A DNA stretch of 64,000 nucleotides, taken from IMG/VR virus record IMGVR_UViG_3300037249_001405, positions 128,001 through 192,000 of that record. One strand, 5' to 3'. Below, piece by piece: positions 1,317 through 60,788 of this stretch. Source of the DNA: a virus (taxonomy: Duplodnaviria > Caudoviricetes). Position 1 is the first letter of the stretch. Every line of letters starts with the position of its first letter. The notes under the pieces are model-generated. The model was not told where the DNA came from and searched no databases. It was given only the letters and a program-made list of their open reading frames with translations. Position numbers and translations under genes: made by a program.

Positions 1317-1437
1317 GCTCAAATCCTTGATATTGAGAGAGTAATAATGTATAAAAGCATTGTTACTCTCTATATTTTCTTTGCTAACAAAACACAATTA
1401 ATTAACAATTTTTAATTTTTTAAAAAACTATAAAAAA

Positions 1438-1866
1438 ATGGCAACACCAAAAAACACAGCTGCTGAAGAAGCAGCAAAGAAGGCAGCAGTAGAGGCAGCT
1501 GCCGCAGCAGCAGCAACAACACAAGCACAAAACGCAGCAGCTTCCACAGCAGCTCCAGTAGCAGTAGCAACAACCACACCCGCTACCCCTGCAGCTCCTG
1601 CAGAACCAGCTAAGAAGGCCCCGTTCTACAAACGACCTGGCTTTTGGCTCGGAGTCACTGGCGTAGTAGCCATCGCAACCGCTTTTGGTGCTGGTTACAA
1701 GCGCGGCGTAAAAGCTGGCCGCGAGGCAGCCAACGCAGAGGAGGAGGAAGACAAGATCGCCAGCGCAATTGGCGCAGGCATCGCCTGCGCCAATGACCAC
1801 AACAGTGGTAATGGTGGCAACTCCAACTCTGGCATCAACAGCCGTGACAACAACCGTCGCGGTTAA
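1438..1866 (+). CDS. Ala/Pro-rich single-TM protein
   Basis: low-complexity N-terminus, KRPGFWLGVTGVVAIATAFGAG hydrophobic segment, GC-richer biased codons, own leader and terminator. Confidence 0.8.
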   Translation: MATPKNTAAEEAAKKAAVEAAAAAAATTQAQNAAASTAAPVAVATTTPATPAAPAEPAKKAPFYKRPGFWLGVTGVVAIATAFGAGYKRGVKAGREAANAEEEEDKIASAIGAGIACANDHNSGNGGNSNSGINSRDNNRRG

Positions 1867-1892
1867 CACAACAACAACATTTAACCTCTAAG

Positions 1893-1933
1893 AAAAAAAA
1901 TCAGATACTATTAAAAAGTATCTGATTTTTTTT
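1893..1933. terminator. bidirectional intrinsic terminator
   Basis: A-tract + tcagatact/agtatctga hairpin + T-tract between convergent genes. Confidence 0.8.
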
Positions 1934-1944
1934 ATTTCCTAAAA

Positions 1945-2565
1945 TTAGCTCAATTTAGTCCAATCATCTTCAACAAGCTGATCGGAATATTTCTTAATTA
2001 GCTCCTTTTGAGCATCTTTAGGATTCTTTTGTAATATGCAGTAAACGGCTGCATATTCATCCTTATTTTCAACTGGATCTATGATCTTAATATCAAATTT
2101 ACATGTACCAGTTTGAGGGTTGATGCTCAAATACTGATCATAATTCTTTATTAAGATAAATCTGCGATTGGCTTGTAACGCTGCTGTAGATTCCTTTTTC
2201 AAATTCTCAAAGGAATAACCTTCAAGTGGAATAAATTCTGAATGAGCCATCATGTACCCAACCGCTGTAGATTGAAAATCCTGCAAGAAAGTTAGTAACA
2301 CGTTCGCAACTTCTTGGCACATAGCCTGAAGATTTTCCTCAGAATATCTATCACCATAGGATAATTTAACCTCGATAAAATCATTACTACCGAGCATTGG
2401 TGAAGATGCTATAGGAAAATCCTCTACAGTTAATGTCGGATTATCAATTTTAGATAAAACTTTCGTCTTAGCTAAATTAATGAAATTCTTTTTAAATTTT
2501 TCAAATATTGAATTTCTCTTAAGATACATGGATATTACTCCATTTTTTACCGCAATTGTTATCAT
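1945..2565 (-). CDS. hypothetical protein
   Basis: 206 aa ORF. Confidence 0.75.
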   Translation of the reverse strand: MITIAVKNGVISMYLKRNSIFEKFKKNFINLAKTKVLSKIDNPTLTVEDFPIASSPMLGSNDFIEVKLSYGDRYSEENLQAMCQEVANVLLTFLQDFQSTAVGYMMAHSEFIPLEGYSFENLKKESTAALQANRRFILIKNYDQYLSINPQTGTCKFDIKIIDPVENKDEYAAVYCILQKNPKDAQKELIKKYSDQLVEDDWTKLS

Positions 2566-2689
2566 AGTTTATAAGTAATTATTGATTCTTTTTATATAAA
2601 AATATAATCCTTTATTTTTCAAGTTTAAGATTTTTGGGGGTATTTAATTCCTTAAATGTGCACTGAAAATAATTAAATAACAGAAAATT

Positions 2690-3190
2690 ATGTCTTTATA
2701 TCTAATTAGAACATTTGGAAGAAGCGCTAAGAAAACAGCATTAAAAGTTGGCTATACTAGCGATTTAAAAAATAGAATTGATTCTTATAAATACCACAAC
2801 CCATTCTCAGAATTGATTTCTACAAGAGAGGGTAGTAATTTAGATGAAGTAAGGGTTCATTCATACCTTAATTCATTAGGCTATAAGTTAGATGTACTTA
2901 ATGAATGGTTTAAAGATGTTGATGATGTCATTCAACTATTTCACAAGCCTTTTGAAACAATGAATGGTGTAATTTGGAGAAATAGAGATAACTTATTCAC
3001 TATAAACGATTTTAAAAGTGAGAATATAATGAATAAGTTATATGAAGAGTTGAAATTAATACAGAATCCGGTTGAGGGTTGGAAAGATATTTTTCATTTT
3101 CCAAAATCAAAAGTGGATAAAGATTGGAGTTTAATTCAATTCAATCGTTGTGTTAGAAATTTTAAACTAACAGACGAAATTGATTTATAA
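2690..3190 (+). CDS. GIY-YIG superfamily (T5orf172/MUG113-like) domain protein
   Basis: LYLI...LKVGYT..L..R...Y..HNP, E..VH..L, EWF motifs; paralogue of 55940-56323. Confidence 0.7.
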   Translation: MSLYLIRTFGRSAKKTALKVGYTSDLKNRIDSYKYHNPFSELISTREGSNLDEVRVHSYLNSLGYKLDVLNEWFKDVDDVIQLFHKPFETMNGVIWRNRDNLFTINDFKSENIMNKLYEELKLIQNPVEGWKDIFHFPKSKVDKDWSLIQFNRCVRNFKLTDEIDL

Positions 3191-3191
3191 G

Positions 3192-3238
3192 AAAAAAAAA
3201 AAATACACATTGACGTAAAAAATCAATGTGTATTTTTT
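3192..3238. terminator. bidirectional intrinsic terminator
   Basis: A-tract + tacacattga/tcaatgtgta hairpin + T-tract between convergent genes. Confidence 0.8.
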
Positions 3239-3244
3239 GTTGCA

Positions 3245-3961
3245 TTAAAAACCTGCATTTTTCAATGCAACAAACAGAGGATTACTTTCATGTTTAATTC
3301 TCTGTTCTTCTTTTTGCTTCTTCTTTTCTGATTCTTTAAAGCAAAAAGACCAAACATCTTTCTTCTTTTTAAGAAAGAATAATATTACTTCTTCAGTAAT
3401 ATTCCCTTTATGACCATAACAGTCATCCCAGATTTCTCTATGCTGTTTTTGCAGCCATAGTAAATCTGAGCAAACTTTCAGTATGTTCTGAAAGGGACTC
3501 CATACCCTCGAAAGCTCTCTCAAGGATATTTCTGATTGGCAATATCTCCAACCTTTTGAATCAGGTTCAGATGGAGATAATGCTTTACACATGGTCGGTC
3601 TATCCTCCCAAGAGAGAAGACAACCTGTGTCTGTCCAATGACAACAACTCTTATCGCCAGGTGCTGGTAATATTACTTTATTACAACACCAGTCATGGTC
3701 GGCTAACTCTTCTTCTGAGAGTGGATCATACTCTCCAAAGAAGTTGTAACTGCTCGGTTTTCCAATACCTTCAAGTATTCGGTATTTAGTTTCCATGCAG
3801 TTTGGAAATAACGCAGCCAAAATTTTTGCGTTATTTTCATCTTGGCCCTCTTTCAAGCCAAGCTGCTCAGGGAAATAAGCCCCGGGCATACGGAGGCAAC
3901 ATTCACCCCCACAACGAGCACAAATACTCTTGCACTCATTGTTTTTAATTTCTTTTGCCAT
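3245..3961 (-). CDS. YkgJ/CxxCxxCC-type Cys-cluster (putative Fe-S or Zn) protein
   Basis: CARCGGECC near N-terminus; C..W....C.L....RP..C later. Confidence 0.65.
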   Translation of the reverse strand: MAKEIKNNECKSICARCGGECCLRMPGAYFPEQLGLKEGQDENNAKILAALFPNCMETKYRILEGIGKPSSYNFFGEYDPLSEEELADHDWCCNKVILPAPGDKSCCHWTDTGCLLSWEDRPTMCKALSPSEPDSKGWRYCQSEISLRELSRVWSPFQNILKVCSDLLWLQKQHREIWDDCYGHKGNITEEVILFFLKKKKDVWSFCFKESEKKKQKEEQRIKHESNPLFVALKNAGF

Positions 3962-4138
3962 AATATATTTTTTATATTATTGTTAATGATTTGAAAAATA
4001 AAAAAGAAGATAGCAAAGCACGCTTATCTTCTTCAATAATAAGGGTTTAAAGGAAAAAGGAATGGGAGGAAGAAAAAAAAATCGTAACCTTTTGGGTTAC
4101 GATTTTTTTAATTAGAGTTGTGTGTGTGTCGTTGCGAA

Positions 4139-4549
4139 TTAGAAGCGCTTTACGTAGCGCCTTACCGACTTCTTTTGCAACTTAAGACCCGAGATCTCTG
4201 ACTTGAGATCTTCGATCTTAGAGTCGATGTCTGCGTTTTCAGCTTCTGCGGCAGCAGCCTCAGCCTTGGCTTCTGCCTCTGCCTTGGCTTCGCTCTCCTC
4301 CTTGTCGGCCTCGTAGAGGTCAACAAGAGATTTGCCGAAGTCAGCGAAGTTGTTGAGAATTGGCCTCAGAGGGATCTGGGCTACCAACTTACCCTCGGAA
4401 GAGTAAGTCTTGATGTTGCCCTTTCCGTCTGCAGTTACGCTGCCGTCGAAGATTACGTACTCGTTCTCGTCTGCACATACATCGTTGCCGCATGCTGCGA
4501 CAACGTTCTTGAACGCGTCAATCGCGTTCTTAATCAATTCAGTATTCAT
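4139..4549 (-). CDS. hypothetical protein with Ala/Glu-rich coiled coil
   Basis: 136 aa, GC-richer biased codons, two tandem promoter motifs upstream, terminator 4073-4108. Confidence 0.8.
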   Translation of the reverse strand: MNTELIKNAIDAFKNVVAACGNDVCADENEYVIFDGSVTADGKGNIKTYSSEGKLVAQIPLRPILNNFADFGKSLVDLYEADKEESEAKAEAEAKAEAAAAEAENADIDSKIEDLKSEISGLKLQKKSVRRYVKRF

Positions 4550-4754
4550 AATTGTAGTTTTTTATGGTTTGTATTTATTTTATTTGTGTTCATATATAAG
4601 GGTATCAGGCATTTATGGACGTATTTTTCATATATCCAAAATATGGCCATTTTTACCCTTATTTTTGTTTTTTTTTATATATATTTTCGTTCATATATAA
4701 GGCTATTAAGCATCTATAGGTGTAATTTTCATATACTTATAGATGCTTAATATT

Positions 4755-5150: not shown

Positions 5151-5220
5151 TTCTTTTCTTTATTACAGCCGATTATTAGAATAGTAATCGCTATTATAGC
5201 GGCAATAAATAGTACTACAA

Positions 5221-5946: not shown

Positions 5947-5952
5947 GATTAT

Positions 5953-7682: not shown

Positions 7683-7809
7683 ATTTAGTTAATTTTATTT
7701 AATTAATATTCAGTAATAAAGAAATCACCGGTCCTTGAAATTACAAAAATGGAGTTGAATAATGACAAAAGTCTTAAAGATAGAATCGTAAAATATAAAT
7801 ATAAATATT

Positions 7810-9323: not shown

Positions 9324-9463
9324 ATAATATTGAATCCTTACCGGTTTTTTATGTGTTTTTTACCGGACGGATTCCTTTGATGGACAGGATGCGCACCTGT
9401 CCATCTATTTTTTTACTCCTTCAAACCCTAATTAACGATATTAACTAAAAAACTATTTATATC

Positions 9464-9859
9464 ATGAAATTATACAACATATTCAAGTCATGCGGGGTTA
9501 CTAACCTTACAGACTTGATCGATTTATTTAATCTGATATACCTGAATAGAAAAGGTACGTCAGAAAGCATCATTATAGATCGATATAATGATGACAGAAA
9601 GGTTGAAGATATGATATCTCAACCTGAGGAGGAACACTCAATTAAGCCAAGACTCCTCTACAAAATACTGAGAACTTTCTTCCAAGGAAAAGGATTGAAA
9701 GTTCACAGTACAGATTACGGCACAAAGACTCCGGAAATGGATGACCAAGATTTGGATTCTGCCATAAACTACCTATTTACCACTCTTAGTGATAAATGGG
9801 AAGAGTTTTCTAACACAGAAAATCACAGAGATGCTTGTTCATTGATTTTCCCAATGTAA
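9464..9859 (+). CDS. hypothetical protein (paralogue of 8410-8994)
   Basis: shared motifs; own promoter motif at ~9422-9438. Confidence 0.75.
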   Translation: MKLYNIFKSCGVTNLTDLIDLFNLIYLNRKGTSESIIIDRYNDDRKVEDMISQPEEEHSIKPRLLYKILRTFFQGKGLKVHSTDYGTKTPEMDDQDLDSAINYLFTTLSDKWEEFSNTENHRDACSLIFPM

Positions 9860-9865
9860 CAAGCT

Positions 9866-9940
9866 AAAAACCTTAATATTGAAGAAAATATAGATGCTAA
9901 AAAATCTATATTTTCTTCATTTATTTTTCTAGATATTAAT
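9866..9940 (+). promoter_or_regulatory. promoter + leader hairpin + U-tract + conserved box (representative of ~14 copies)
   Basis: aaaaaccttaatatt-GAAGAAAATATAGA...TCTATATTTTCTTC-atttatttttctagatattaa. Confidence 0.75.
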
Positions 9941-9964
9941 TAACTTTAACTAAAATTGATTATT

Positions 9965-14978: not shown

Positions 14979-15057
14979 ACGAAGTTGATTAGTTGAATTT
15001 ATTGATAGGTAAGACAATGCGCTCTTACCTATCTTTTATTTTTAATAAAATTAATAA

Positions 15058-16101
15058 ATGAATAGATATAAATATGCTCTGGTTGATATGTCTTACATTC
15101 TTGTAAGAAATCTAAAAGCAATATCAGCTGGTAAGCAAGTTGGAGAGTATAATGAGGGTGAAGTATTAAGAATAACAATACAAACCATAAAAAAGATAGT
15201 AAGAGAATATGGAATAACCGCGGATAAATATATATTCATTTATGATAAATGGGATAAAGAAATAAACGGTTATTATAGAACATACTGTCTAAAGGATTTT
15301 GTAGCATATAAAGGTTCAAGAGTTTATGTAAATGAAGCTTACGTAAGAAGACTAGAACAAGAATTAGCTAACATAGATCCGGCAAATACAGAAGAGATAG
15401 AAAAGAAAAAGAAAGAAATAGAAACAGCGAAAAAGGAAGCTTATGAAAATCAGGTAAAATATAACGCTAAAGTGGCTATGATTAATGATTTTCCAAAAAT
15501 AGGTCTCCCTTGTCTGGGTCTAGAAGGTTGGGAATTTGATGATTTAGCTTGGTTATCAACATGTTTGTTGTTTAGTGAGACTGATAATAGGACTAGTATA
15601 ATTATAACAAAAGATACGGATCTCCAGTACTCATTATCTCCAAAGATGGATTATTTCAAAATTCCAACAGGAAAAAGTACACCAAAAATTATTACATACG
15701 AAGAGATGATTAAAACCATCCCACAATCAATTTCAAGTAGAGGAGTAACTTTATATAATTATAAAGCATACTTAGATTCACTTGGTACAGGTCACAATGA
15801 TATGAAACCTACTGTTATTTCAAAGAATTCTATAGAAGATATCATACTTCACATACTTGATGGTGATTACAGCGATGTAAATAAAGAACAGTTCTTAGCA
15901 CAATTTAACTCATTTGATCTTCATAATTTTCCAAGATTAGATCAAGCATTCAATATAATAAATAACGACTACAAGTCTTACGGCCATTTGGGTGATATTA
16001 ATCAATTCCATGAATTCTGTAATAAATATAACATCAATTCAATCAGAGATCAATATTACCTCGAATTAATTCAAGGTTTTAATCCCTTACTTTTCTCATA
16101 G
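15058..16101 (+). CDS. 5'-3' exonuclease / T4 RNase H-like (FEN/PIN fold)
   Basis: LVD, YKGSR, EFDD, TKDTDLQ, GHND acidic motifs. Confidence 0.85.
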   Translation: MNRYKYALVDMSYILVRNLKAISAGKQVGEYNEGEVLRITIQTIKKIVREYGITADKYIFIYDKWDKEINGYYRTYCLKDFVAYKGSRVYVNEAYVRRLEQELANIDPANTEEIEKKKKEIETAKKEAYENQVKYNAKVAMINDFPKIGLPCLGLEGWEFDDLAWLSTCLLFSETDNRTSIIITKDTDLQYSLSPKMDYFKIPTGKSTPKIITYEEMIKTIPQSISSRGVTLYNYKAYLDSLGTGHNDMKPTVISKNSIEDIILHILDGDYSDVNKEQFLAQFNSFDLHNFPRLDQAFNIINNDYKSYGHLGDINQFHEFCNKYNINSIRDQYYLELIQGFNPLLFS

Positions 16102-16883: not shown

Positions 16884-19718
16884 ATGATCATTGGAATAGT
16901 TTCAGACATTCATATTCATGCATACCCAAACAGGAACCCTGAGAACAATCTTTATAGGTTGCTCCAGGGTTCTCGTCTTGTGTCTCAGAATATTATAGAA
17001 GTCTTTAAACAAAATGGATGTGAGGCAGTTATATTTGCCGGTGATATAGTTGAGAAATCAATTATACGTCCTTATGTTCAAGCGGAAATAAAATATTTTC
17101 TAGATACAATTATGTCCAATTTCAGAGGAGGTTGGATTATTTGGGGAAATCATGATTTGGATAGTAAGAGTGCAGTACAAACCGTAACGGATTCGGTTTT
17201 AGGTGTTATATTACCACCTAATTTGATATATGCACACCAACAGATTGTTAATATAAATGGAACAACCTTAGCATTTTCTAACTGGCAACCTGAGTTTGAT
17301 CTAAGTTGGATTCAAAACCCAGTAGATTTTCTTATAACCCATGCCAGAATAAATTATTCGAATGCTAGTAATTTCCAGCCACAACAGTTAGACGAAAGTA
17401 AATTTAATTTAGCTATATGTGGTGATATACATTATCCCGGTACAAAGGGGAAGTTTGTTTCTATAGGTGTTCCTCAAATGTGTAAATTATCAGATAGTCC
17501 TGACTCAACTGGAGTTATCTTGAACACAGATACAAAGGAATGGAAATGGGTTGATTTAAATCCTCACAAAAATCTTCTTAAATTTGTTAGCACAGATAAG
17601 CTAGATTGGGATAACAAATGGGATAAATCAACACTTACATACTACATTTATAGTAAACCTACTGTCATAGATCCTAATACAGGTATTAATGTTTCTGTGC
17701 CTGTATGGTCTGATATACAAGTCTTAATAGACTCTTCTATTGTTTCTAATAGTTTAGAAAACGTTCATAACGAAGTACTAAAATATATAGACAGGTTTGA
17801 TTATCAGGATGTGGATTTTAATTTTACATTAACTAAATTCTCCTGTAAAAATTGGAGAAGTATAGATGACTGTACTTTATATTTTGATGAAGGGGATAAA
17901 ATATTAATTCAAGGGGCTAACGGTAGCGGAAAAAGTAGTTTATTATCCGCTATTAAATACGCTTTTGTTGATGTTTCTGATACAAAGGGATTATCTTCTC
18001 TAAAGCCATTTATTCAATTTGGTACGAAAGATTGTTGGACAGAAGTAGAGTTTATTTACCAGAATAACATTTGTCGAATAAGGAGAGGTACAAAAGAATT
18101 TGGACTATGGATAAATAACGAACAAATGAAATATAATGATAAAAAATCATTTGAAGCAGATGTTCGTATGAGATTTCCGTTTATTAAATTTATGGATATA
18201 TTTTTCTTAGATGCTGACCATAATCAGCTTATAGGCAGTATGTCTGTAGAGAAAAAATCCCAAGTTATTTCTGGAGTATTAAAATTATCCAAAATTGACG
18301 TATATAATAATATAGCTGCTAATTTGCTTGATGGTGTGAAGAAAAATGGAACAGAATTAAATAACCAAATAAAGCAAATTAATAAAGTTCTTGAATTTAT
18401 TAATGATAAATTAGCTAGTCCAATGTATACTCAGTTACCCAGCATTAGTTATAATCAATTAGTAAATCTTAGAAATGAAGGATTGAAAATTGAACAAGAT
18501 AATAATGCGTGGGTGGAGTATCAAAAACTAGTACAGCCTCTTCAAGAAAAGGTTAATGTACTAAAGGCTGAATTAAAAAAGCTAAATGCTGAAAAGAAAA
18601 AATTCAGACCAGAAGTAGATATTAATAATGAAATTGCTAATTACCAGAATCAAATTAGTAATTTACAAAATCAAATTATTGAGTTAAGCAATTTAAAAAC
18701 CCAAATTGAGTACAAAGAGGCTGAACTTAATAAATTGAAAAACGAGGGAAACCAAGCATATATCGATGCTAATAATATAACAATGAATAGCAGATGTAAG
18801 ACTTGTGGTCAACCTATAACTACCTCTGATACTTTAATGGCTCATAAGAATGAGTTATTGAGAAAAGTAGAAGAAATTAGGCAGATTGTAGTACCTCTCT
18901 CTGAAGAAATCAATAATTTAAAAGCTAGTTGGGCACAATCAGAAAACATTTATAACCAGCTAACGAATAATATTAATGATTTCAATACTAAAATATCTGA
19001 ATTAAGAGCAGAACTTTTAAATCAAGGTAAGGTTGAAAAATCCCTTGAAAAGAATGATAAAGATTTAAAGAAGTGTCAGCAACAAATTCAGCAAATACCA
19101 GTAGTTAAACAGGTAGATCTTCCTGATGATTTCCGTGCTAAAATGGAAAAAATTAAGGATGATATTATAATCTGGGAAAACTATGAGGGTCTTGTTCAAG
19201 ATAAAACAAGAAATACTAATGATATTAACAATATCAAACAAGATCTTGATAAATTATCTGTTATAGCAAACGAATTAGAACGCTATATAAAATTAACAGG
19301 TCCTGCTGGTGATATTTATAGTGCTATTTTGAACAAATTAGCAAATGAATTTTCAGATAATCAGGTCAAGTATGAAGTTAGAAAGTACAACAATAGAGGA
19401 GAACATTTAAATCTAGAATCTATGTACTATAATAACGGAAACTGGGTTGATTATGAGGCATGTAGTAGTGGTCAAAAGACTGTTCTTGATGTTCACTTCC
19501 TCCAGAAAATTATACCACGAATTGGTGTATTAATTATGGATGAATTCTTTAAACATCTTGATCCAGAAAACCACGATGCTTGTATAGAAGCTTTAAGTAA
19601 TATGAATATTGGATGTACTATGATAAGTTCTCACATGGAATCTATAGCTGCTTTCAATAATAAATCATGTAAATTATCACTTAATGCGAGTGGTTTAACC
19701 CAAATAGAGTACAAGTAA
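16884..19718 (+). CDS. Mre11/SbcD nuclease - Rad50/SbcC ATPase fusion
   Basis: DIH, GD, GNHD, GDIH phosphoesterase motifs; GANGSGKS Walker A, CKTC Zn hook in coiled coil, SSGQ signature, IMDE Walker B, SH. Confidence 0.92.
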   Translation: MIIGIVSDIHIHAYPNRNPENNLYRLLQGSRLVSQNIIEVFKQNGCEAVIFAGDIVEKSIIRPYVQAEIKYFLDTIMSNFRGGWIIWGNHDLDSKSAVQTVTDSVLGVILPPNLIYAHQQIVNINGTTLAFSNWQPEFDLSWIQNPVDFLITHARINYSNASNFQPQQLDESKFNLAICGDIHYPGTKGKFVSIGVPQMCKLSDSPDSTGVILNTDTKEWKWVDLNPHKNLLKFVSTDKLDWDNKWDKSTLTYYIYSKPTVIDPNTGINVSVPVWSDIQVLIDSSIVSNSLENVHNEVLKYIDRFDYQDVDFNFTLTKFSCKNWRSIDDCTLYFDEGDKILIQGANGSGKSSLLSAIKYAFVDVSDTKGLSSLKPFIQFGTKDCWTEVEFIYQNNICRIRRGTKEFGLWINNEQMKYNDKKSFEADVRMRFPFIKFMDIFFLDADHNQLIGSMSVEKKSQVISGVLKLSKIDVYNNIAANLLDGVKKNGTELNNQIKQINKVLEFINDKLASPMYTQLPSISYNQLVNLRNEGLKIEQDNNAWVEYQKLVQPLQEKVNVLKAELKKLNAEKKKFRPEVDINNEIANYQNQISNLQNQIIELSNLKTQIEYKEAELNKLKNEGNQAYIDANNITMNSRCKTCGQPITTSDTLMAHKNELLRKVEEIRQIVVPLSEEINNLKASWAQSENIYNQLTNNINDFNTKISELRAELLNQGKVEKSLEKNDKDLKKCQQQIQQIPVVKQVDLPDDFRAKMEKIKDDIIIWENYEGLVQDKTRNTNDINNIKQDLDKLSVIANELERYIKLTGPAGDIYSAILNKLANEFSDNQVKYEVRKYNNRGEHLNLESMYYNNGNWVDYEACSSGQKTVLDVHFLQKIIPRIGVLIMDEFFKHLDPENHDACIEALSNMNIGCTMISSHMESIAAFNNKSCKLSLNASGLTQIEYK

Positions 19719-19801
19719 AAAATATGATAACCAAGTAACTAAAATTACTTGGTTATCTTTTTATACCCATTAAATCCTAATAACTGAAATAAATTAACTA
19801 A

Positions 19802-21814
<2,013 letters not shown>

Positions 21815-21820
21815 TCGCTT

Positions 21821-21911
21821 GAGACTCTTATATATGAAGAAATATTCAGAGCCAATTTTGGCCGCCCATGAACCGCAGTGATGCGCCGGGCGGCTTTTAT
21901 TTTTTTTTTTC
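21821..21911 (+). ncRNA. candidate small RNA unit (promoter + GC-rich hairpin + T-tract)
   Basis: gagactcttatatatgaa promoter motif followed within ~25 nt by gccgccc..cgca-gtga-tgcg..gggcggc and a long T-tract. Confidence 0.4.
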
Positions 21912-22008
21912 TTTCCTTCAAACCCTTATTTATGAAGAAAGTATAAATGTAATTATATTTTCTTCAATTTATTTTTCAAGATATTAATTAAGTAAAAAAC
22001 TATTTATT

Positions 22009-25057: not shown

Positions 25058-25167
25058 AATAAAGTAGTTTTTATGTGTTAATAAATCGTGAAAAATAAAA
25101 AGAAGAAAATATAGACTCTTTACATCTATATTTTCTTCATATATAAGAGTTTAAAGGAATTAGAATA

Positions 25168-27152: not shown

Positions 27153-27346
27153 AATAAATATTTTATTTAAAAAATTAATATCTAGAAAAATAAAAAGAGA
27201 GTATAAAGCGGGATGCTTTATACTCTCGAGAAACAGAAAACAAAAATCAACCCAATAAATAAATTATGTCTTGAGTAATAATGGTTTAGAAAAATAAAAG
27301 ATAATATAAACTTTTTATCGTTTATATTATCTTCATGTATTAGGTT

Positions 27347-29757: not shown

Positions 29758-29859
29758 AAATATAATAAGTAGTTTTTATTAATTAATATCTAGAAAAATA
29801 AAAAGAAGAAGATATAAACTAATTTATATCTTCTTCTTCATTAAGAGTTACAGGGATTG

Positions 29860-31403: not shown

Positions 31404-31503
31404 TTTTTTTCATATTTAGTTAATATCGTGAAAAATAAAAAGAGAAAGTGAGTGTATGAATATAGAAACGTACACTCACTTTCTCAGTGATTAGATTTTG
31501 AGA

Positions 31504-34228: not shown

Positions 34229-34345
34229 AATTGATAAGTGTTTAGTTAATAATGATAATTTATTTTTTTTGTTCTTTTATTAGATTTTGAAGGGACAAAA
34301 AAAGTAACTGATAATTAGATTTTTTTCTAATTATCAGTTAATCTA

Positions 34346-34528: not shown

Positions 34529-34597
34529 TTTAATAATTTTTTATTTATTATTAATAAAGATTTTAATTCATTTATTAGGTTTTTAAGGGAGCAAAAA

Positions 34598-35424: not shown

Positions 35425-38058
35425 CTAATTATTCATTGATTTTATAGCTTCATCGGCTACTTTGTTAATGGCCTCGACTGCAGCAACAGCTTTCTCATCA
35501 ATTGCATAATCATCTACCTGAATATTATTATTCCTCTTATAAAAATCCTCCATACAAGCTGGAGGAACAAACATAAAACTATTCATTAAAACATAATCTT
35601 TAATTGAATTTTTATTGTTTGTATCCTTGTCATTTCTATCACATATTTGATACTGAAGTGCTGCTTTTGTAAAATCAAACCCACTTGCATAAAAATCAGG
35701 AACAACGGGCTTAACTCCGGCCTCTTCAAAGAGGTGAGTTGAACATTTCCATTGTTCAAAAACTGATGGAGTAATTTCAAATTCAGTATAATTATCTATG
35801 TCCAGGATTCTGTAAATATTATTAATTACTTCACCTAGGTTAATGTAAAGATATGCTTCATTATTACTCAACTTACTAACCTGTTCCTCTCGATAAATAT
35901 AATATTTAGTAACACCATTCTTGATATCATCGAGTGTTACCTTATATTTACCATATGTTTTAATAGCATCATAAACCCTTTGCCAATTATTATAATAAAG
36001 CGTATTAATCAAATCAGTGTCAAAGTTTAACCTTGATTTATGAACCTTATTATAAAATTCTGTTACGCCCCAGCTCGGTGAAGGAACATAAGCATATTTA
36101 ATGAGATAATTAGCTATAACACATTCACATGTTCCTCTAGGATCATCAAGAGCTCGTTTAACTAAGTTATGAAGTTCTTCTGCCCATGTAACTGAGTTAA
36201 CCTGATCTATATCGTTCAAAGTGAATTTAACCCCGAATAATCGATACCTTCTATACTCATTTATGTATTCAGCGGACTCTGCATCAATATCGAAAAGATC
36301 TTTTAATAGTTTATTATATACCTCTACAGTATTACAAACATAAACCTCTTCCGTGCTTAAACGTCCTCCTTTTACATAATTATAAACATTAAAGTAATAT
36401 TTATCGGATACTATATCTCGGACTTTCATCCAATTTTCTTTATAGTTTTCCGTAAAATACTCCTTTATCTTGTCTAAGAATTTATCACAGAAATTCCAGA
36501 TACAATCATCTCCATACTTTTCATAAAAATCCTTCATAGATTTTCCGATAATTTTGGATCTTTTTGTATTAGTATCGGATAGAGTTACTTGATCATACGC
36601 CCCTTTAATAATAGTATCAATATTACCTGAGAGTGTCCAGTTTGATTCTTCCTTCTGATCACACATAGCTGATTTTAAATAATCATCTATATTAAGAGGT
36701 GGTGCAAACATGAGGGTATGTATTAAGTCTGTAGTCTTAATATCACTACCATCCATTGGAATAGGCGTAGGATCATTACCAGCCTCTAACCACTCTCGCT
36801 CTATCTTACCCCAAATTTCAAAATCTGTAGGAGTAATGGTTCTCTTTGAGAAATGCTCATCAAAATAGTCAAAATAATAGCTATAACCTTTTGATGGCTT
36901 TTCCAATGCACAATTAGCAAAAGCTAAATCAGATGGTGTAATGACATAACTATGAGTCTTCATCTTCATAGCTGTTTCCACAACTTCCCACTTTTTCTTA
37001 AAAAGATCAGAAGCTTTGATCATTCTTAATTTAGTCTTGGTAAATTCAAGATCATCTTTGGAAGGTGTTTTTTCTTTCTCTCTCTTTTCATACTCTTCCA
37101 TACTCATTCCAGTCTTTCCAAGATAGTTCAAGAAATCATCAAGCTCATTTCTGTGTGGATTTAAAGGTTCTGGTTCTGGAGTATCTTCTACCTTAGTAAT
37201 TGTTTTAGTGAGAGAATCATTAGAATAAATCCTGGATTTAATATCCATTGGATTTTCAAACTCCTTAATATAATTAACCCTAGCTGTATTAACGTCATTA
37301 AACCACGTAATAGTTTTGCTATAGTTAGCTATATCATCATCTGTTAATTTAAATCCGATATTAGTAATAGCCGTAAATATCTTCTCTAAATAAACTGGTT
37401 TAAATTTTTCTAAATCATCAGTAACATCAATATCAAACTCAAATACAGCATTAACGTCCTTATCATCCTCCTTAATAAAATACCAATCACATGTAATATC
37501 AGAATCCAAAGAATAGAAATGGAGCTTACGTGTATTTGTATATTTTAATACTGTAGAATATTCATTCATAAAATGAATATAGCTTGAAATTTTTCTAGTA
37601 GACGACCACAGACCAGAGGGCATACTTAGCTTTCTAGTATGATCATCAAACCAGTTAGGTACTGTTTCTGGATTAAATATACAAGTAACCGGTAAGAATT
37701 GCTGAGATTGATCCCTTAAGTACTCGTATTCAATCTGCTTAATTTCTATACCACCATCTTTTTGCAGAGTTGATGCACTATCCTCATGAAGCGAAAAAAT
37801 AGATTTATAGTCTATTTTATTATTCACAAAGAACCTAATCACATCCTTAACCTTTTGTTCGTCTGTGCTACCCTCTTTAAGTTTGTCAGAAAATGTAGTA
37901 GTAACATTCAGAGTAACTAAACTACCATTCTCCTTGTAATCAAAAGTTTCCTTTAATGTAATAGGAAACTCATTCACTTTCGTAAAGCTAGTAAAAAATA
38001 CATTAACTAATGTATCAAGCTCCACCTTAGGAATAGTTAATCTTGCTTTTCTAATCAT
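35425..38058 (-). CDS. large hypothetical protein with internal duplication
   Basis: 877 aa; two copies of W..V..A.K...ITP..FE.W......EAG..P...MF.PP. Confidence 0.8.
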   Translation of the reverse strand: MIRKARLTIPKVELDTLVNVFFTSFTKVNEFPITLKETFDYKENGSLVTLNVTTTFSDKLKEGSTDEQKVKDVIRFFVNNKIDYKSIFSLHEDSASTLQKDGGIEIKQIEYEYLRDQSQQFLPVTCIFNPETVPNWFDDHTRKLSMPSGLWSSTRKISSYIHFMNEYSTVLKYTNTRKLHFYSLDSDITCDWYFIKEDDKDVNAVFEFDIDVTDDLEKFKPVYLEKIFTAITNIGFKLTDDDIANYSKTITWFNDVNTARVNYIKEFENPMDIKSRIYSNDSLTKTITKVEDTPEPEPLNPHRNELDDFLNYLGKTGMSMEEYEKREKEKTPSKDDLEFTKTKLRMIKASDLFKKKWEVVETAMKMKTHSYVITPSDLAFANCALEKPSKGYSYYFDYFDEHFSKRTITPTDFEIWGKIEREWLEAGNDPTPIPMDGSDIKTTDLIHTLMFAPPLNIDDYLKSAMCDQKEESNWTLSGNIDTIIKGAYDQVTLSDTNTKRSKIIGKSMKDFYEKYGDDCIWNFCDKFLDKIKEYFTENYKENWMKVRDIVSDKYYFNVYNYVKGGRLSTEEVYVCNTVEVYNKLLKDLFDIDAESAEYINEYRRYRLFGVKFTLNDIDQVNSVTWAEELHNLVKRALDDPRGTCECVIANYLIKYAYVPSPSWGVTEFYNKVHKSRLNFDTDLINTLYYNNWQRVYDAIKTYGKYKVTLDDIKNGVTKYYIYREEQVSKLSNNEAYLYINLGEVINNIYRILDIDNYTEFEITPSVFEQWKCSTHLFEEAGVKPVVPDFYASGFDFTKAALQYQICDRNDKDTNNKNSIKDYVLMNSFMFVPPACMEDFYKRNNNIQVDDYAIDEKAVAAVEAINKVADEAIKSMNN

Positions 38059-38156
38059 ATTAAATCATGTTTTTTATTATACTTTCAATAATAATAGTTT
38101 TAGACCACTAATAGCGTGAAAGTCTTAGTTACGAACACTAAAAATAAAACACTAAT

Positions 38157-38891
38157 ATGGATAGACTTCTTATGTTTTGCGGTGATGTACATGGTTATAT
38201 CACTGCATTAGTCAATCGACTATGTTGTGAAATGCAACTAAATCACGTTGATTGTATAGTCTGTGGAGATTTTGGTATCGGCTTTGACAAAAGCTGGGAG
38301 AATCTCTACAACAAAATTGAACCTAAGCTTAAAAAAGCGGATGTTCATATTTGGGTTGTAAGGGGCAACCACGATAATCCTGAATATTTTGAAGATGAAA
38401 CAAGATATTCAAAAGATTATGTAACTTTTATGGAGGATTATAAACTCTATAAAATTGCAGAAAAAGAAATACTTCCCGTCGGAGGAGCTACTTCTGTTGA
38501 CAAAAAGTTGAGGGAAGAAGGCAAAAACTGGTGGCCTGGTGAAAAAATTAAGAGGGTAGATATAAAGACATTACCTACAAAGGTTGATGTAATTGTATCA
38601 CATCAATGCCCATTGATTTTTGACCCAATTACAGTTAAATTGGATGACGATGATGATATTTATGAGGAAGTTACAGAGGAACGTAACTATCTTAACGAAA
38701 TCGCATTCAATGTAAAAGCTGAATACTGGTATTATGGTCATCACCATACACATTATTCTGGAGAATATAAAGACATGAAATGGATATGTCTTGGTATTTC
38801 TAATCGTAGGGATCTTCGACCTGAACTTGACTATTATAAAGAAAGAGAAGATTTCGAGCCGAATCCTCAAGGGGAAGACTCAAAACCTTAA
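38157..38891 (+). CDS. calcineurin-like metallophosphoesterase
   Basis: GDVHG, GDFG, GNHD, SH..P, GHHH. Confidence 0.9.
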   Translation: MDRLLMFCGDVHGYITALVNRLCCEMQLNHVDCIVCGDFGIGFDKSWENLYNKIEPKLKKADVHIWVVRGNHDNPEYFEDETRYSKDYVTFMEDYKLYKIAEKEILPVGGATSVDKKLREEGKNWWPGEKIKRVDIKTLPTKVDVIVSHQCPLIFDPITVKLDDDDDIYEEVTEERNYLNEIAFNVKAEYWYYGHHHTHYSGEYKDMKWICLGISNRRDLRPELDYYKEREDFEPNPQGEDSKP

Positions 38892-38988
38892 TAATGAAAT
38901 AATGAAGATATAAATATAAATGTATCTTCATTATTTCTTTTTCTTTTACTATCTAAACATATTATTAACAAAAAAAAACTATTCAATT

Positions 38989-41040: not shown

Positions 41041-42057
41041 CTAAAGACATAATTTGTCTAAAGCCTGCTCGTATTCTTCGATATATTTATCAATTACTGA
41101 CAAGTCTTTGGAGACCCTCAATCCTTGCCTATTAAAAGATTTAACAGGATCAAGTGAGGTAAATCCCTCCAGCTGACATGTATCGTAATTAAAGATTCGT
41201 GTATAATTCCACGCATCCGTGGAAAGATAGATGTGATTATTGGTCCAACCTTTAGCTGAAGACTGTAATACAGCCGACAGATTATTGTTGTTATTATCAA
41301 TAATCAATGTTCCAACAACCGTAAGTGACGGAACTGAATCTTCTAGTTCACCTGGATTGGGTTGAAACATTTTACCGCTATGCAAACAAAGCTGCATAAG
41401 CTGCTTTGCCTTAAACCTAAGACCTCCGGGACCTAAGTCACCACCAGTCATAGTATCATTAGCAAAGGCTACAAGACGTGAAAGACCATCAAATAATAGT
41501 AAGACGTCCTTACGCTTGTTATATACCAAATCTTGAGCACAAGCTATGATTTGGCATGCGTTATCTATACTGTCTGTATAGAAATCGTCCAAACATGCTA
41601 CCCTAATATCGATATCAGGATGAGCATTCTTGAAACAGGAGACAAAGCCTCCCCTTTCAGACCACATTTCATAATCCCTTTCACCAAATGAGATTACGAA
41701 AATATAGTCAAACTTTTTGCCAGTGGAGTTCACGTAGGGTCTACACCAGCCACTTGCCATAGTCATAAGCGTGGAAGTTTTACCACAGCCTGCCTCGGCA
41801 ATGATGTGAACTGACTGTCCAAAATGGATGTCAAATTCACGATCTATATAACGCGATCTTGCGCGTTGTATAGCGGTATCCCCAGCAGCACATACACGTG
41901 CATGATACTGATCAGGGATTTCACCGTGAGCTTTTCTATAGTCACGGTTAATGCGCTCCCTTTCTACAGGATTCGCATAGAACTGGATCAGTTTCTCTAC
42001 CTGATCCGTAGGTGTTTCCGTCGGTGACGGAAAATAAAACTCTTTGTATTTGTACAT
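41041..42057 (-). CDS. divergent transcription termination factor Rho-like ATPase, N-terminally truncated
   Basis: GQ..HI.AEAGCGKT, GER..E, DVLLLFDGLSRL...N, GG, SLTVVGT.IID, KG..N..IYLS in Rho order. Confidence 0.78.
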   Translation of the reverse strand: MYKYKEFYFPSPTETPTDQVEKLIQFYANPVERERINRDYRKAHGEIPDQYHARVCAAGDTAIQRARSRYIDREFDIHFGQSVHIIAEAGCGKTSTLMTMASGWCRPYVNSTGKKFDYIFVISFGERDYEMWSERGGFVSCFKNAHPDIDIRVACLDDFYTDSIDNACQIIACAQDLVYNKRKDVLLLFDGLSRLVAFANDTMTGGDLGPGGLRFKAKQLMQLCLHSGKMFQPNPGELEDSVPSLTVVGTLIIDNNNNNLSAVLQSSAKGWTNNHIYLSTDAWNYTRIFNYDTCQLEGFTSLDPVKSFNRQGLRVSKDLSVIDKYIEEYEQALDKLCL

Positions 42058-42180
42058 TTATTTAATATAATAAATTTTGTTAATAATCACGAAAGAATTA
42101 AAGCCGAAAATTAAAAGATAGATGGATTATAACTCCACCTATCTTTTATTCTTTCATATATAAGGGTTTCAGACGACTGA

Positions 42181-46386: not shown

Positions 46387-46579
46387 ATTATGTAGTTTTT
46401 TATTAATGTTAATAATCGTGAAAAATAAAAAGAAGATATAAAGTGCACTTATATCTTCTCAATATTAAGAGTTTTAGAGGAATAAAAAAAAAAATAATCC
46501 CAGCTAAATTAATAGTGAGATTATTTTTATATATTGATAGTTATCAGCCTCTGTTATGGCATATCGCTAATAACGTTTT

Positions 46580-54071: not shown

Positions 54072-54114
54072 AAAAAAAAGAACATATAGCATTAAAACTA
54101 TATGTTCTTTTTTT
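54072..54114. terminator. bidirectional intrinsic terminator
   Basis: aaaagaacatatag/ctatatgttctttt. Confidence 0.8.
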
Positions 54115-54116
54115 AT

Positions 54117-54962: not shown

Positions 54963-54964
54963 TT

Positions 54965-55849: not shown

Positions 55850-55939
55850 AATCTTATATAATTTTATTTAGTTAATAATCTAGAAAAAATAAAAGAAGAT
55901 ATAAACAATATTGTTTATATCTTCTCCTAATTAAGAGTT

Positions 55940-56323
55940 TTACCGTTTTTTACTCTTTCTCAATCTTTCTAGACGTTTATATAGATTTAGCCACGGAACA
56001 CTATTCTTTAGCTTAGCTTTTGAGAATACTGATTTCTTGTTTTCCCATAAGAAATCAGTTATTTCTTCCATTGGCAGGGAAAGGATATTCTCTACACACT
56101 TATCATTAACATACCATTCTTTCCTGTATTTTCCGAATCCTTTTAGATGTAGATAATCATGTATGCATCTCTCATCCACTCTACTACCTTTGGTAACCCT
56201 CACTAACTTACAACTCGGATTGTGTGCTAAGTATTGGGTTAATCTGGACTCTACATCATCTGCATAACCAATCTTATACAATTTATTTCCCTCTGAATCT
56301 AAACTTGTCAAGCAATATAACAT
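55940..56323 (-). CDS. GIY-YIG superfamily (T5orf172/MUG113-like) domain protein
   Basis: LYC...YKIGYA..V..R..QY..HNP, DE..IH..L, EWY. Confidence 0.7.
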   Translation of the reverse strand: MLYCLTSLDSEGNKLYKIGYADDVESRLTQYLAHNPSCKLVRVTKGSRVDERCIHDYLHLKGFGKYRKEWYVNDKCVENILSLPMEEITDFLWENKKSVFSKAKLKNSVPWLNLYKRLERLRKSKKR

Positions 56324-56519
56324 GATAATTTTATATTTATATTAAACATAATGAGTTTTTATTAATACGTATATTAGAATGGTAGTATATTGTTAGTGGA
56401 GTTTTCTTTATTTCAATCACTTTAAACCCTTAATAATGAGGAAGATATAGACAGTTAAGTTTATATCTTTCTTTTTTATTTTTCACGATTATATTAACAT
56501 TTAAAAAAACTACAATATT

Positions 56520-56984: not shown

Positions 56985-56989
56985 TTATT

Positions 56990-57409: not shown

Positions 57410-57423
57410 TTATTAACTGTATT

Positions 57424-57843: not shown

Positions 57844-57859
57844 GAAAGTTTACATAAGA

Positions 57860-58453: not shown

Positions 58454-58506
58454 AAAAAAAACACATAGATTTATTTTTTTAGTATTTCTATGTGTTTTTT
58501 TTTTAT

Positions 58507-58575
58507 TAGTGGCTCATTGAGGATTCGAACCTCTTTCGGTATTATTTCCCGACGCTGCGCCTCGCCTTAGAGCCA
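58507..58575 (-). pseudogene. degenerate tRNA / tRNA-like RNA
   Basis: GGCUC/GAGCC acceptor, GAGG-UUCGAAU-CCUC T arm, UCGG/CCGA stem with 9-nt loop; own promoter (58702-58723) and terminator; no readable anticodon. Confidence 0.55.
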
Positions 58576-58810
58576 TGTATATAAACCCCCGCCAGATAAT
58601 AAAATCTTTGAAAGGGATTATAATTAAATAAACCCACCAACAACACTTATATTGGTGTTATTAGTGGGTGTGCTTCAGTTATTTATTTTTTTTTTTAATT
58701 GTTCATAAATAAGGGTTTTAAGGAATAAGAGGAAATAAAAAAAAACAAACTTAACTAGCTTTTTTGTTCTAATTAAGTTTGTTTTTCTCAATGCGTTAGT
58801 GTGGGTTCAG

Positions 58811-59284
58811 TTATCTCCATTCCCAGTCGGTCAACGACTGGTATACTCGACCCCCATCAAGTGTGGAGGGTCTGCGACTCTGTCTGTCGATCGGTACTGC
58901 TACCGACCGAACTACGGTGGCAGTTGCGCCACCGTAGCCTCCTGTGCGACCTGTGCGACGAACGGTCTCACCAAAGATCCCAGGCGTTACCGTCTCCTTG
59001 GAACCGTCGGAATAATACCGAACTACCGTATCCCCGTAAATACCCGGAGTCCGGGTCTCGGAGATCATGTGGATGGAGAGCGGCGATGTTGCAACAATCT
59101 GAGTACCGCCGAGGTACTTCTCAGCGTACTCCTTTGCTGCACCAGGATTGCTGAAACCAATGTTAGTGCCGCGAGGCACAAAAACGGTCTGCGGGCTATC
59201 CGATACAACTGCAGCGGTTGTTACTCCAACCGCAAGAGCTCCCAGGAATACGTCTCCCCAGGAGAAATCATTTTTCTTGCTCAT
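58811..59284 (-). CDS. hypothetical protein, hydrophobic N-terminal segment, TPGI(Y/F)G repeats
   Basis: 157 aa, GC-richer, own promoter (59324-59344) and terminator. Confidence 0.75.
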   Translation of the reverse strand: MSKKNDFSWGDVFLGALAVGVTTAAVVSDSPQTVFVPRGTNIGFSNPGAAKEYAEKYLGGTQIVATSPLSIHMISETRTPGIYGDTVVRYYSDGSKETVTPGIFGETVRRTGRTGGYGGATATVVRSVAVPIDRQSRRPSTLDGGRVYQSLTDWEWR

Positions 59285-59369
59285 GATCTAGTAGTTTTTT
59301 TAATTAATAAATTTTTGTTTGTGTTCAATAATAAGGCTTTGAAGAAGTCTTATACGTAAATTCTCAAAT

Positions 59370-59726
59370 CTATCTTTTCCTGTATTTATCGATAAATTCG
59401 AGAGCTTTTTTGAAATTATCTTCCGTTAATTCTATTGAATTCTGGTATAATAATTTCTCTGTTCCATCCACTTTTACTGTCTTAACGGAGAAAGAGAATG
59501 TTTCTGAATGAATTGTTATACTAACAACTTCATCTACTGACTCAAACACTACTCCTCCGTAATAACCGAAGACAGCGTATTTTTTATTATTAAATTCTTG
59601 TGGATACCTGTTTACGATATCTTTTGCATTATTGTAAACTTCTTGAGTAATTTTAGTAACTGTACCATCCTCTGATGATATATCTACTAATTCCTTCAAG
59701 TCATTAAGGTCTTCTATTAAACTCAT
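59370..59726 (-). CDS. hypothetical protein
   Basis: 118 aa ORF. Confidence 0.7.
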   Translation of the reverse strand: MSLIEDLNDLKELVDISSEDGTVTKITQEVYNNAKDIVNRYPQEFNNKKYAVFGYYGGVVFESVDEVVSITIHSETFSFSVKTVKVDGTEKLLYQNSIELTEDNFKKALEFIDKYRKR

Positions 59727-59728
59727 AA

Positions 59729-60622
59729 TTATTTAGTTATAAATCTAATATTATTTGAATTTAAGCCTAAAACATTAGGCCTAATTAATTCAATTTCATC
59801 CTCTTCGTATACAGAAAGGTCGTAGATTTTTCCATAACAACGAGGATTTTCTGGATGATTTCCATACCACAGACCTCTGAATCCGTATAGTCCTGGGCAT
59901 GAAGCATTCATACCTTTCTTAAGGTGTTTTTCTTTCACCTTAAGAACTACAACTCTATCTTTCCTGTTTTCTTCTTTATTATAGAGTTGGAGAATCATTC
60001 CAGGGCGTATATCTTCTTTCTTAATACGTCTTTGCTCTTTCACCCAATCTATCCTTGCCTTTATCTTAGGCAATTCTCTAATGCAATCGGGTTCTACAAG
60101 TTCCTGATTCTCCATTAATACTTTATACAGAAATTCACAAGCTTCCAACCAGTCTTCTGTTATGTCAACTGGAATAGTTGTGATATTACTGTATCCATCA
60201 GCTAAATGAAATATACCCCTTCTTGGTTTTGTTCCATTTATGCTGAGTTGATCTGCTCTTTTCAGTGTATAATCAAGAGTATGATCATTGACACGATTTT
60301 CGATATCTTTGATTATACTTACTTGCTCATCATACCATTCATTGTAGTTTGGTAATAATGTTATTTTTTTACCTTTAGCAAGATCTTTGAGAATTTTCTC
60401 ATGCTCAAGATCTTCTAGTCTTTCTTTTTCTACCCTCTCAAGAGCTTCCTCTATTGTGGGTACTCTGTTGGTTTTGTAATTTGGAGCCTCAATAAGTTCT
60501 CCAAATTCCCAACTAAAACCACCGCCTATTGTGAGTAGACACTGGTCTAACACGTCGATAACATTCTGTTGTATCGCCGGATAAAGGAGGATAGACCTCC
60601 TTATTGTATTTTTTACATTCAT
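59729..60622 (-). CDS. hypothetical protein
   Basis: 297 aa, leader element at 60640-60716. Confidence 0.75.
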   Translation of the reverse strand: MNVKNTIRRSILLYPAIQQNVIDVLDQCLLTIGGGFSWEFGELIEAPNYKTNRVPTIEEALERVEKERLEDLEHEKILKDLAKGKKITLLPNYNEWYDEQVSIIKDIENRVNDHTLDYTLKRADQLSINGTKPRRGIFHLADGYSNITTIPVDITEDWLEACEFLYKVLMENQELVEPDCIRELPKIKARIDWVKEQRRIKKEDIRPGMILQLYNKEENRKDRVVVLKVKEKHLKKGMNASCPGLYGFRGLWYGNHPENPRCYGKIYDLSVYEEDEIELIRPNVLGLNSNNIRFITK

Positions 60623-60788
60623 ATTTGATATAGTTTTTTGTTAATAATCATGAAAAATAAAGAAGGGAATATAAACTTTAATCGTTCATATTCCCTTCTT
60701 ATATAAAGGTTTTAGCTGGTTAGATATGCATAATCTAGAGAACCCTTAAATCTTTAGTATTGAATATAAATTATAATTAACAAAAAAA

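Follow-up and report, generated by a model that had tools for sequence, protein, structure and literature searches.

The stretch of DNA analyzed here (the window; 64,000 bp) comprises bases 128001-192000 of the IMG/VR virus record IMGVR_UViG_3300037249_001405, which is 210,316 bp long with an estimated completeness of 56%. Spread over it on both strands is a unit of about 85 bases, referred to below as the cassette, in which a promoter runs directly into a terminator-type RNA hairpin and a U-tract. Positions are those of the window unless marked as genome positions. The record has a G+C content of 31-38%; no close cultured phage was found for it, and most of its large proteins lack a Pfam or PHROG family. 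Judged from its sequence, it is very probably an uncultured giant phage whose host is a member of the Bacteroidales from a herbivore gut. This host is suggested because the NAD-dependent ligase of the phage shares 58-60% identity with those of Bacteroidales genomes from rumen and hindgut, because its gene starts carry an A at -3 and an A-rich block at -12 to -16 with no Shine-Dalgarno signal, and because matches to sigma70-type promoters occur at chance level (42 versus 43 expected). Gene starts of the same pattern have been described for Bacteroidota (PMC6847099).

Anatomy of the cassette and its promoter

A covariance model (CM; model R1) built from 22 copies and run on the whole 210-kb record identified 27 cassettes and one further copy that lacks a promoter. 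Fifteen units lie within the window (Table 1) and cover all 14 sites at which a first-pass annotation had reported the element, whereas the cassettes at genome 75687+, 104001+, and 118670- fall beyond the windows that the annotation had covered. From 5' to 3', the cassette consists of a promoter of the form CTnAAAMYCTTA-N5-G, the hairpin, a TTT(T)ATTTTTC tail, and the motif (W)NGAT(W)TTAAY. Alignment of the copies on the hairpin shows the final G of the promoter to be invariant, and in most copies it is also the first base of the stem. The stem spans 12-18 bp and has a purine-rich 5' arm, the loop varies from 4 to 10 nucleotides (nt), and the U-tract directly 3' of the stem is the most conserved part of the cassette. 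All 15 hairpins in the window have fold z-scores of -3.2 to -8.6, with none of 200 shuffled sequences folding as well. Hairpin energies are -10 to -23 kcal/mol, and TTT(T)ATTTTT comes directly after the stem. The conserved box TTTATTTTTCWNGAT was found 10 times in the window with at most one mismatch, compared with 0.89 expected from shuffles; its exact form occurs 18 times in the record and never in the reversed control.

The promoter motif had been ascribed to every copy. It is present at the other listed copies, but no match was found at the second member of a tandem pair (27171-27244, -). The box, likewise ascribed to every copy, is degenerate at 1313-1391, 27275-27356, 38874-38960, and 42077-42177. 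AAAAACTA, also counted as part of the element, turned out to be a general leader motif located ~15 nt before many ATGs. Rfam searches at the gathering score over 124 kb including the window returned only tRNAs and one group I intron, and no family at the cassettes.

The motif CTnAAAMYCTTA-N5-G, hereafter P_A, behaves as a genuine promoter and is the main promoter of the phage. At a position weight matrix (PWM) score of at least 12, 54 sites were found versus 7 in the reversed control. Twenty-six P_A sites are cassettes and 25 stand alone, located either 18-55 nt before an ATG or before stretches that are free of open reading frames (ORFs) and resemble RNA genes. The stand-alone sites are positionally kept in relatives. 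The ligase unit and the topoisomerase block bear out the earlier remark that replication genes use the promoter without the hairpin leader, and an 877-amino-acid (aa) gene of unknown function (35425-38058) likewise uses P_A without it. As a -10 element, the conserved TATA(A/G)A within the stems was rejected, its spacing to the upstream motif not being constant. The tail TATTTTTC was rejected as a host -7 box for want of the nearly invariant G, and the right half of the box, with its ATTAAY, was rejected as a second promoter, since it lies 1-9 nt from the ATG in several junctions.

Among the top-scoring P_A sites, those at 58600-58723 (-) and at genome 56034 (+), 93515 (+), and 110259 (+) are not followed by an ORF within 140 nt and are likely to represent non-coding RNA genes; no Rfam family was found at these sites. 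A candidate small RNA gene at 21817-21910 (+) is located directly upstream of a cassette.

The hairpin is under selection for its RNA structure, and this on the sense strand. It acts as RNA because its stems covary, with compensatory (both-sided) changes in 9 of the 14 stem pairs, because they accept G.U and not A.C (31 G.U pairs versus 3 A.C mismatches), and because in 18 of 24 copies folding is more stable on the sense than on the antisense strand (p=0.002). In the alignment, 88% of cells are paired, as opposed to 50-68% when the partners are slid. A G-C to A-U compensatory change keeps the hairpin in L086 and L087, the orthologues of a unit that encodes an ATPase. The covariation, the pairing rules, and the strand bias all agree with the first-pass argument that stems which vary yet keep pairing must be under structural selection. 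They also bear on the idea of a DNA-level element, a cruciform or single-strand hairpin that serves as an N4-type promoter, an origin, or a recombination site. An inverted repeat beside a conserved sequence would suit such a role, as would the use of hairpin promoters by N4-like phages and the one module swap that has its breakpoint at a cassette edge. However, tolerated G.U, avoided A.C, and better folding of the sense strand argue against a two-strand cruciform, and stems of 12-18 bp with loops of 4-10 nt are unlike the hairpins of N4 and LUZ7. We consider a DNA-level role highly improbable.

In form, the cassette hairpin and its tail match the terminators that the phage uses elsewhere: a stable hairpin followed 0-2 nt on by a U-rich tract, as in intrinsic (Rho-independent) terminators. 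Our scan for hairpins with T-tracts found ~70 sites just after genes, with a mean energy of -11.4 kcal/mol and in many cases a TTTTATTTTT tail. Rows labeled as cassettes in the same scan averaged -12.3 kcal/mol, a value that includes separate terminators just upstream of some cassettes; whole cassette hairpins averaged -15.7 kcal/mol in a different scan from that of the gene-end terminators. A generic scan also places cassette hairpins among terminator-like sites. Given the status of the promoter, the selection at the RNA level, and the match to the phage's own terminators, "promoter-proximal terminator/attenuator," as first proposed, is a fair description of the element. The box-bound antiterminator that completed the proposal is not supported.

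In that model, the terminator is released when an antiterminator protein of the phage binds the conserved box. The box is indeed nearly invariant and is conserved in relatives, but it lies 3' of the termination point and is therefore unreadable as RNA before the decision to terminate is made. Nor is it a separate protein site, because the left half is the terminator tail, the TTTTATTTTT tail being found at ordinary gene-end terminators as well, and the right half, GATATTAAC, recurs as a motif in the leaders of many genes. In about 40% of genes ATTAAY is present, with a peak at -30 to -21; the peak of AAACTAY is at -15. In one unit (9437), GATATTAAC follows the G of a hairpin-less P_A directly, and the copies with a degenerate box keep their hairpins. 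The searches of the 210 kb revealed no Q-like or NusG-like gene, and we give the model very little credence.

The leader that follows is A/U-rich and Shine-Dalgarno-free and reads GAUAUUAAY, often AAAAACUA, then AUG. Several cassette leaders contain TTAACTTTA (e.g., at 9944-9955), which has the sequence of the translational enhancer "epsilon" from the leader of T7 gene 10, a resemblance only.

Terminators also precede genes that have no promoter of their own. At least 13 junctions genome-wide consist of a strong terminator hairpin, 19-36 nt, and a same-strand ATG with no promoter between; examples are found at 15003-15058 (+) and at genome 19210 (-), 92308 (+), 97372 (+), and 194612 (+). The downstream genes must therefore depend on read-through, which makes read-through a routine need for this phage.

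Conservation and genomic context

The cassette is conserved among relatives of the phage. Proteins 46-93% identical to the product of the 396-aa cassette gene were found in rumen-type metagenomes, and three syntenic contigs (L083, L084, and L085) keep the cassette at the same place. Between orthologues, the hairpin, tail, and box are 88-98% identical, compared with 64-83% for the promoter motif, 58-93% for the upstream coding sequence, and 70-83% for the downstream one. The presence or absence of the hairpin was identical at every orthologous promoter compared. Among the matches listed, 2 of the 120 metagenome-contig stretches with the box pattern represent further cassette-bearing relatives (L169 and L171). 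In IMG/VR, the box pattern gave 29 matches, all of them chance matches with neither hairpin nor promoter motif; no relatives were found via the 572-aa protein or, in IMG/VR, via protein P0005. P0005 is, however, carried by a 344-kb contig of a relative, and these phages are present in the samples JGI 3300031867, 3300031992, and 3300031760. The RtcB relatives L038 and L039 (33% identity) carry no cassette.

In L084, an unrelated gene stands in place of the cassette and 238-aa gene at 3245-4056, and the breakpoint immediately follows a terminator that both genomes have. The surrounding region is a hyperplastic spot (3245-4560 versus L084:4000-4840) in which two neighboring genes have given way to unrelated ones in the relative and the terminator between them has been kept. 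The replacement gene in L084 has a Shine-Dalgarno-like AAGGAGG, unusual for this phage.

The cassette is a portable unit found before unrelated accessory and ORFan genes. Of 26 first downstream genes, 22 were scanned against Pfam; only two reached the cut-off of the family concerned, and only an AAA_33 kinase-like gene scored above it (1.2e-14); a single pair of homologous downstream proteins was found among the cassette genes. The genes served by the cassette are thus unrelated to one another. One of them encodes a 338-aa P-loop ATPase (41041-42057, -) with Pfam matches that are all below threshold. Its best relatives of solved structure are Rho ATPase domains (E about 0.003, residues 157-281); the N-terminal domain of Rho (Rho_N) was not found by Pfam search in this protein or in the record. 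A Rho-like motor is intriguing in a phage so rich in terminators.

About half of the cassettes adjoin the stop codon of the upstream gene. For 13 of them, no further terminator was seen from that stop codon to the cassette, and the hairpin therefore appears to be the sole terminator of the gene upstream. Seven cassettes lie behind a separate terminator, and four or five are in divergent positions. The hairpins that abut an upstream gene are stronger than those behind a terminator (-17.6 versus -11.7 kcal/mol, p=1e-4). The five basal pairs are kept alike in all three settings, with 4.4 of 5 pairs in divergent, 4.2 in behind-terminator, and 4.3 in abutting copies.

Two further features of the record concern other genes. 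An array of 17 tRNA genes with a group I intron (Rfam RF00028, 62.5 bits) in L047 is located at genome 87000-97400, and an Mre11/SbcD-type phosphoesterase is fused to an SbcC/Rad50-type ATPase in a single 944-aa protein encoded at 16884-19718 (+).

Table 1. Cassettes, stand-alone P_A promoters, and an ordinary terminator in the window
Feature	Position	Strand	Promoter G	ATG	PWM score	CM score (bits)	Fold (kcal/mol)	Fold z	Remarks
Cassette, degenerate box	1313-1391	+	1335	1438		36.6	-20.2	-6.25	Motif 1313-1334; hairpin 1336-1371; orthologous copy L084:2177-2260
Cassette	3979-4056	-	4034	3961 (238-aa ORFan)		64.5		-3.18	Behind separate terminator at ~4081
P_A alone	4591-4610	-			17.9				Kept in relative, L084:4838
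P_A without hairpin	9418-9437	+		27 nt on	19.1				G directly into ATATTAAC (box right half); kept at L083:2981, L084:9458, L085:99
Cassette	9859-9943	+	9881	9965 (396-aa ORFan)		75.4		-5.49	Hairpin 9881-9918; tail and box 9919-9943; kept in L083, L084, L085
Ordinary terminator, TTTTATTTTT tail	15003-15058	+		26 nt on					No promoter between terminator and ATG
P_A alone before NAD-dependent DNA ligase gene	19767-19786	+			13.8				Ligase Pfam match
P_A alone	21817-21836	+			15.5				~60-nt ORF-free RNA ending at G+C-rich terminator, -19.5 kcal/mol
Cassette	21912-21991	+	21934	22009		74.3		-4.16	Behind terminator of small RNA gene
Cassette	25078-25160	-	25138	25057 (572-aa ORFan)		76.7		-5.60	Adjoins rtcB stop codon; terminator-like in generic scan
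Promoter-less copy	27171-27244	-		27152 (first gene of rtcB operon)		38.9	-19.4	-7.85	Hairpin 27197-27227; perfect tail and box; terminator-like in generic scan
Cassette, first of tandem pair	27275-27356	-	27334			50		-7.28	Tail kept; box right half degenerate
Cassette	29779-29858	-	29836	29757		78.6		-3.94	Terminator-like in generic scan
Cassette, different stem sequence (GAGAAAGUGAGUGUA...)	31416-31507	-	31485	31403		62.6	-22.5	-8.63	
P_A alone behind terminator	34274-34293	-			18.1				Order as in promoter-early stem-loops (PeSLs): terminator, then promoter
P_A alone behind terminator	34569-34588	-			21.9				
P_A alone before 877-aa gene	38086-38105	-		28 nt from G	15.2				
Cassette, degenerate tail and box	38874-38960	+	38896	38989	22.1	28.6		-7.47	
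Cassette before Rho-like ATPase gene	42077-42177	-	42155	42057		30.3	-21.7	-6.88	Core hairpin starts 8 nt after G; box displaced, degenerate
Cassette	46406-46482	-	46460	46386		72.4		-4.86	Behind separate terminator
Cassette	55869-55948	-	55926	55849		62.9		-5.23	
Cassette, divergent	56416-56498	+	56438	56520 (AAA_33 kinase-like)		80		-5.88	
P_A alone, top score	58704-58723	-			25.3				No ORF downstream; candidate non-coding RNA gene
Cassette, divergent	60638-60720	-	60698	60622		74.3	-21.7	-6.29	

Proposed attenuation and insulation, and the start of transcription

Our preferred interpretation, to which we assign a probability of about 40%, is that the cassette fuses a promoter to a real terminator that attenuates the cassette's own transcripts and also insulates the unit from upstream transcription. 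Transcripts from P_A would meet a full-strength terminator after about 45-55 nt, and ~27 accessory or ORFan units would thereby be held at low or delayed expression. These units would be expressed by leakage or once the polymerase has been made terminator-resistant, with short 5' hairpin RNAs as a by-product. The same hairpin would end transcription arriving from the upstream gene and so insulate each unit. We infer that P_A transcripts contain the whole stem, that they terminate at it, and that their read-through is regulated. A role for the cassette's own transcripts is suggested by the equal basal pairing in the three settings, by the leader of the rtcB operon, which has two hairpins in series, the second without its own promoter, and by the displaced hairpin of the ATPase unit.

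The extent of self-termination depends on whether transcription starts at the G or ~5 nt inside the stem. The core of P_A, TA-N5-G, is spaced like the -7 box of primary-sigma promoters in Bacteroidota, TAHHTTTG, in which T-12, A-11, T-8, T-7, T-6, and G-5 are nearly invariant and transcription starts 4-5 nt after the G at -5 (Baez et al. 2019, PMC6847099). Aligned in this way, P_A sites have G-5 in all cases, T-6 in 40 of 51 (78%), and a G in only 2 of the 102 positions at -10/-9. T and A are the majority letters at -12/-11 in 23 cassette copies, and -8 and -7 are A or T, with T not conserved. P_A thus has in common with the -7 promoters the TA-N5-G spacing, the avoidance of G at -10/-9, and an A-rich block near -18, but differs from them by the unconserved T-8/-7 and by a strongly conserved AAAMYC block directly upstream. 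A start 5 nt inside the 5' arm would halve the stem energy, from -15.9 to -7.9 kcal/mol, with loss of the G-C-rich base.

These features allow a different reading, which we regard as possible though doubtful: the cassette would be an overlapping terminator/promoter insulator. P_A would then be of host type, a -7 box with a phage-specific upstream element, and would start transcription ~5 nt after the G, within the 5' arm. Its own transcripts would mostly read on, and only RNA coming in from upstream would form the full hairpin and stop, giving a compact version of PeSL function. Besides the TA-N5-G spacing, the frequency of T-6, and the rarity of G at -10/-9, an insulator would fit a Bacteroidales host, as suggested by ligase identity (58-60%) and the gene-start pattern, and the finding of no phage polymerase or sigma factor. 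It would also fit the halving of stem energy by truncation and the 13 cassettes that have stronger hairpins and no other terminator after the upstream stop. The basal pairs, however, show covariation and are equally well kept where there is no incoming transcription, in divergent copies and in those behind a terminator, and two units have the full hairpin well inside the leader. By our own count, an A follows the G in 22 of 25 stand-alone sites, which looks like a +1/+2 start dinucleotide. T-8/-7 is not conserved, and canonical TAHHTTTG boxes are not enriched in intergenic DNA, numbering 17 over the whole record as opposed to 53 in the reversed control, so that the phage seems to avoid plain host promoters.

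If RNA starts at the G, the hairpin could instead be a 5'-terminal stem-loop that blocks 5'-end-dependent decay of the mRNA, with the U-rich stretch serving translation. Stabilizing hairpins, such as that of the Escherichia coli ompA leader, must lie within a few nucleotides of the 5' end, and the cassette stem does begin exactly at the invariant G in most copies, including those with unrelated stem sequences. Selection at the RNA level on the sense strand is also what a stabilizer would show. On the other hand, a stabilizer does not need the U-tract, which is the most conserved part and makes the unit a textbook terminator, and the hairpins of the promoter-less copy (27171-27244) and the ATPase unit are not 5'-terminal. 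We think stabilization quite unlikely.

Several observations weigh against self-attenuation. The -7-box geometry would put the start 4-5 nt after the G and weaken the stem. Divergent hairpins are as strong as abutting ones, and the effect of context on hairpin strength may reflect the history of subfamilies. Orthologous hairpins are conserved in sequence and not in pairing alone, which could point to an element recognized by a protein. The stem begins at the promoter G itself, which leaves no RNA ahead of it to form an alternative (antiterminator) structure. No alternative pairing of the kind used by structure-switching attenuators or riboswitches was found in the leader; the minimum-energy hairpin accounts for 14-93% of the ensemble (median about 0.5), and a weak second helix was seen in one copy only. 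Finally, no gene for an antiterminator, sigma factor, or RNA polymerase was found in the 210-kb record, which is about 56% complete. Pfam searches of the record returned no Rpb2, Rpb1, T7-type RNA polymerase, sigma70 region 2 or 4, NusG, or Q, and the Q-family antiterminator profile PF06530 had no match in this part of the genome. The T7-type profile was silent in its control too, and this negative is therefore weak. A scan of all ORFs for DxDGD/DFDID motifs gave no convincing polymerase.

Self-attenuation might also take a more extreme form, which we consider unlikely. About half of the phage promoters would be "switched off," yielding only 45-55-nt hairpin RNAs with 5' triphosphates, until a putative phage factor makes the polymerase terminator-resistant and opens ~27 units and at least 13 junctions. 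The gene for such a factor might lie in the 44% of the genome that is missing, or be one of the ORFans. If true, this would be a global antitermination program of a kind not described for Bacteroidota phages.

Relation to known phage and bacterial systems

The element gives a map of transcription units for an uncultured lineage of giant Bacteroidales phages from herbivore guts, including a dominant promoter motif (at least 51 sites), a style of terminator, and ~27 accessory genes with a promoter-fused terminator. Should the terminator act on its own promoter, the cassettes would form a compact, genome-wide attenuation/antitermination regulon in a phylum where almost nothing is known about how phages control their genes. 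Otherwise, they would be overlapping terminator/promoter insulators, reusable as a genetic part in Bacteroides.

Known 5'-terminal stem-loop stabilizers include the E. coli ompA leader and leaders of Bacillus subtilis and phage SP82. The cassette hairpin resembles them in being flush with the putative 5' end of the mRNA and differs in the conserved U-tract directly after the stem and in the copies that are not 5'-terminal. A promoter closely followed by an intrinsic terminator is also found in the late PR'-tR' unit of lambdoid phages, which yields a short RNA unless Q makes the polymerase terminator-resistant. The cassette shares this order of promoter and terminator, but lambda has one such unit per genome as opposed to about 27 here, and its terminator lies about 190 nt downstream, whereas the terminator of the cassette begins at the putative start site. 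No Q-like gene was found here, and no Q-binding or pause element was identified in the cassettes.

In the N4-like phage LUZ7, promoters are short DNA hairpins with a 3-4-nt loop, and transcription starts 13-15 bp downstream (Putzeys et al. 2022, PMC9163698); stems in N4 and LUZ7 have at least 4 bp in early and at least 6 bp in middle promoters (PMC9163698). Conserved hairpins at the starts of transcription units are common to these phages and ours, but the cassette stems are long, their loops are variable, and they follow RNA pairing rules, which sets them apart from N4-type promoters.

The closest known class is that of the PeSL cassettes of T4-type phages (Arbiol et al. 2010, PMC2839356; Comeau et al. 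2014, PMC4122927). In both, short cassettes of a promoter and a terminator stem-loop recur in front of many unrelated ORFan genes. The PeSL stem-loop attenuates incoming transcription, as the present hairpin probably does, and gene modules come and go at PeSLs between related phages; one such case, in L084, was seen here. The order of parts differs: the PeSL stem-loop lies upstream of a sigma70-type -35/-10 promoter, whereas the present hairpin lies downstream, starting from the last conserved base of the promoter. The promoter motif is here phage specific, the host is very probably a member of the Bacteroidales, and the tail and leader are far more conserved. Whichever function applies, the idea of a portable promoter/terminator cassette extends beyond T4-like coliphages to a phage and a host of a very different kind.

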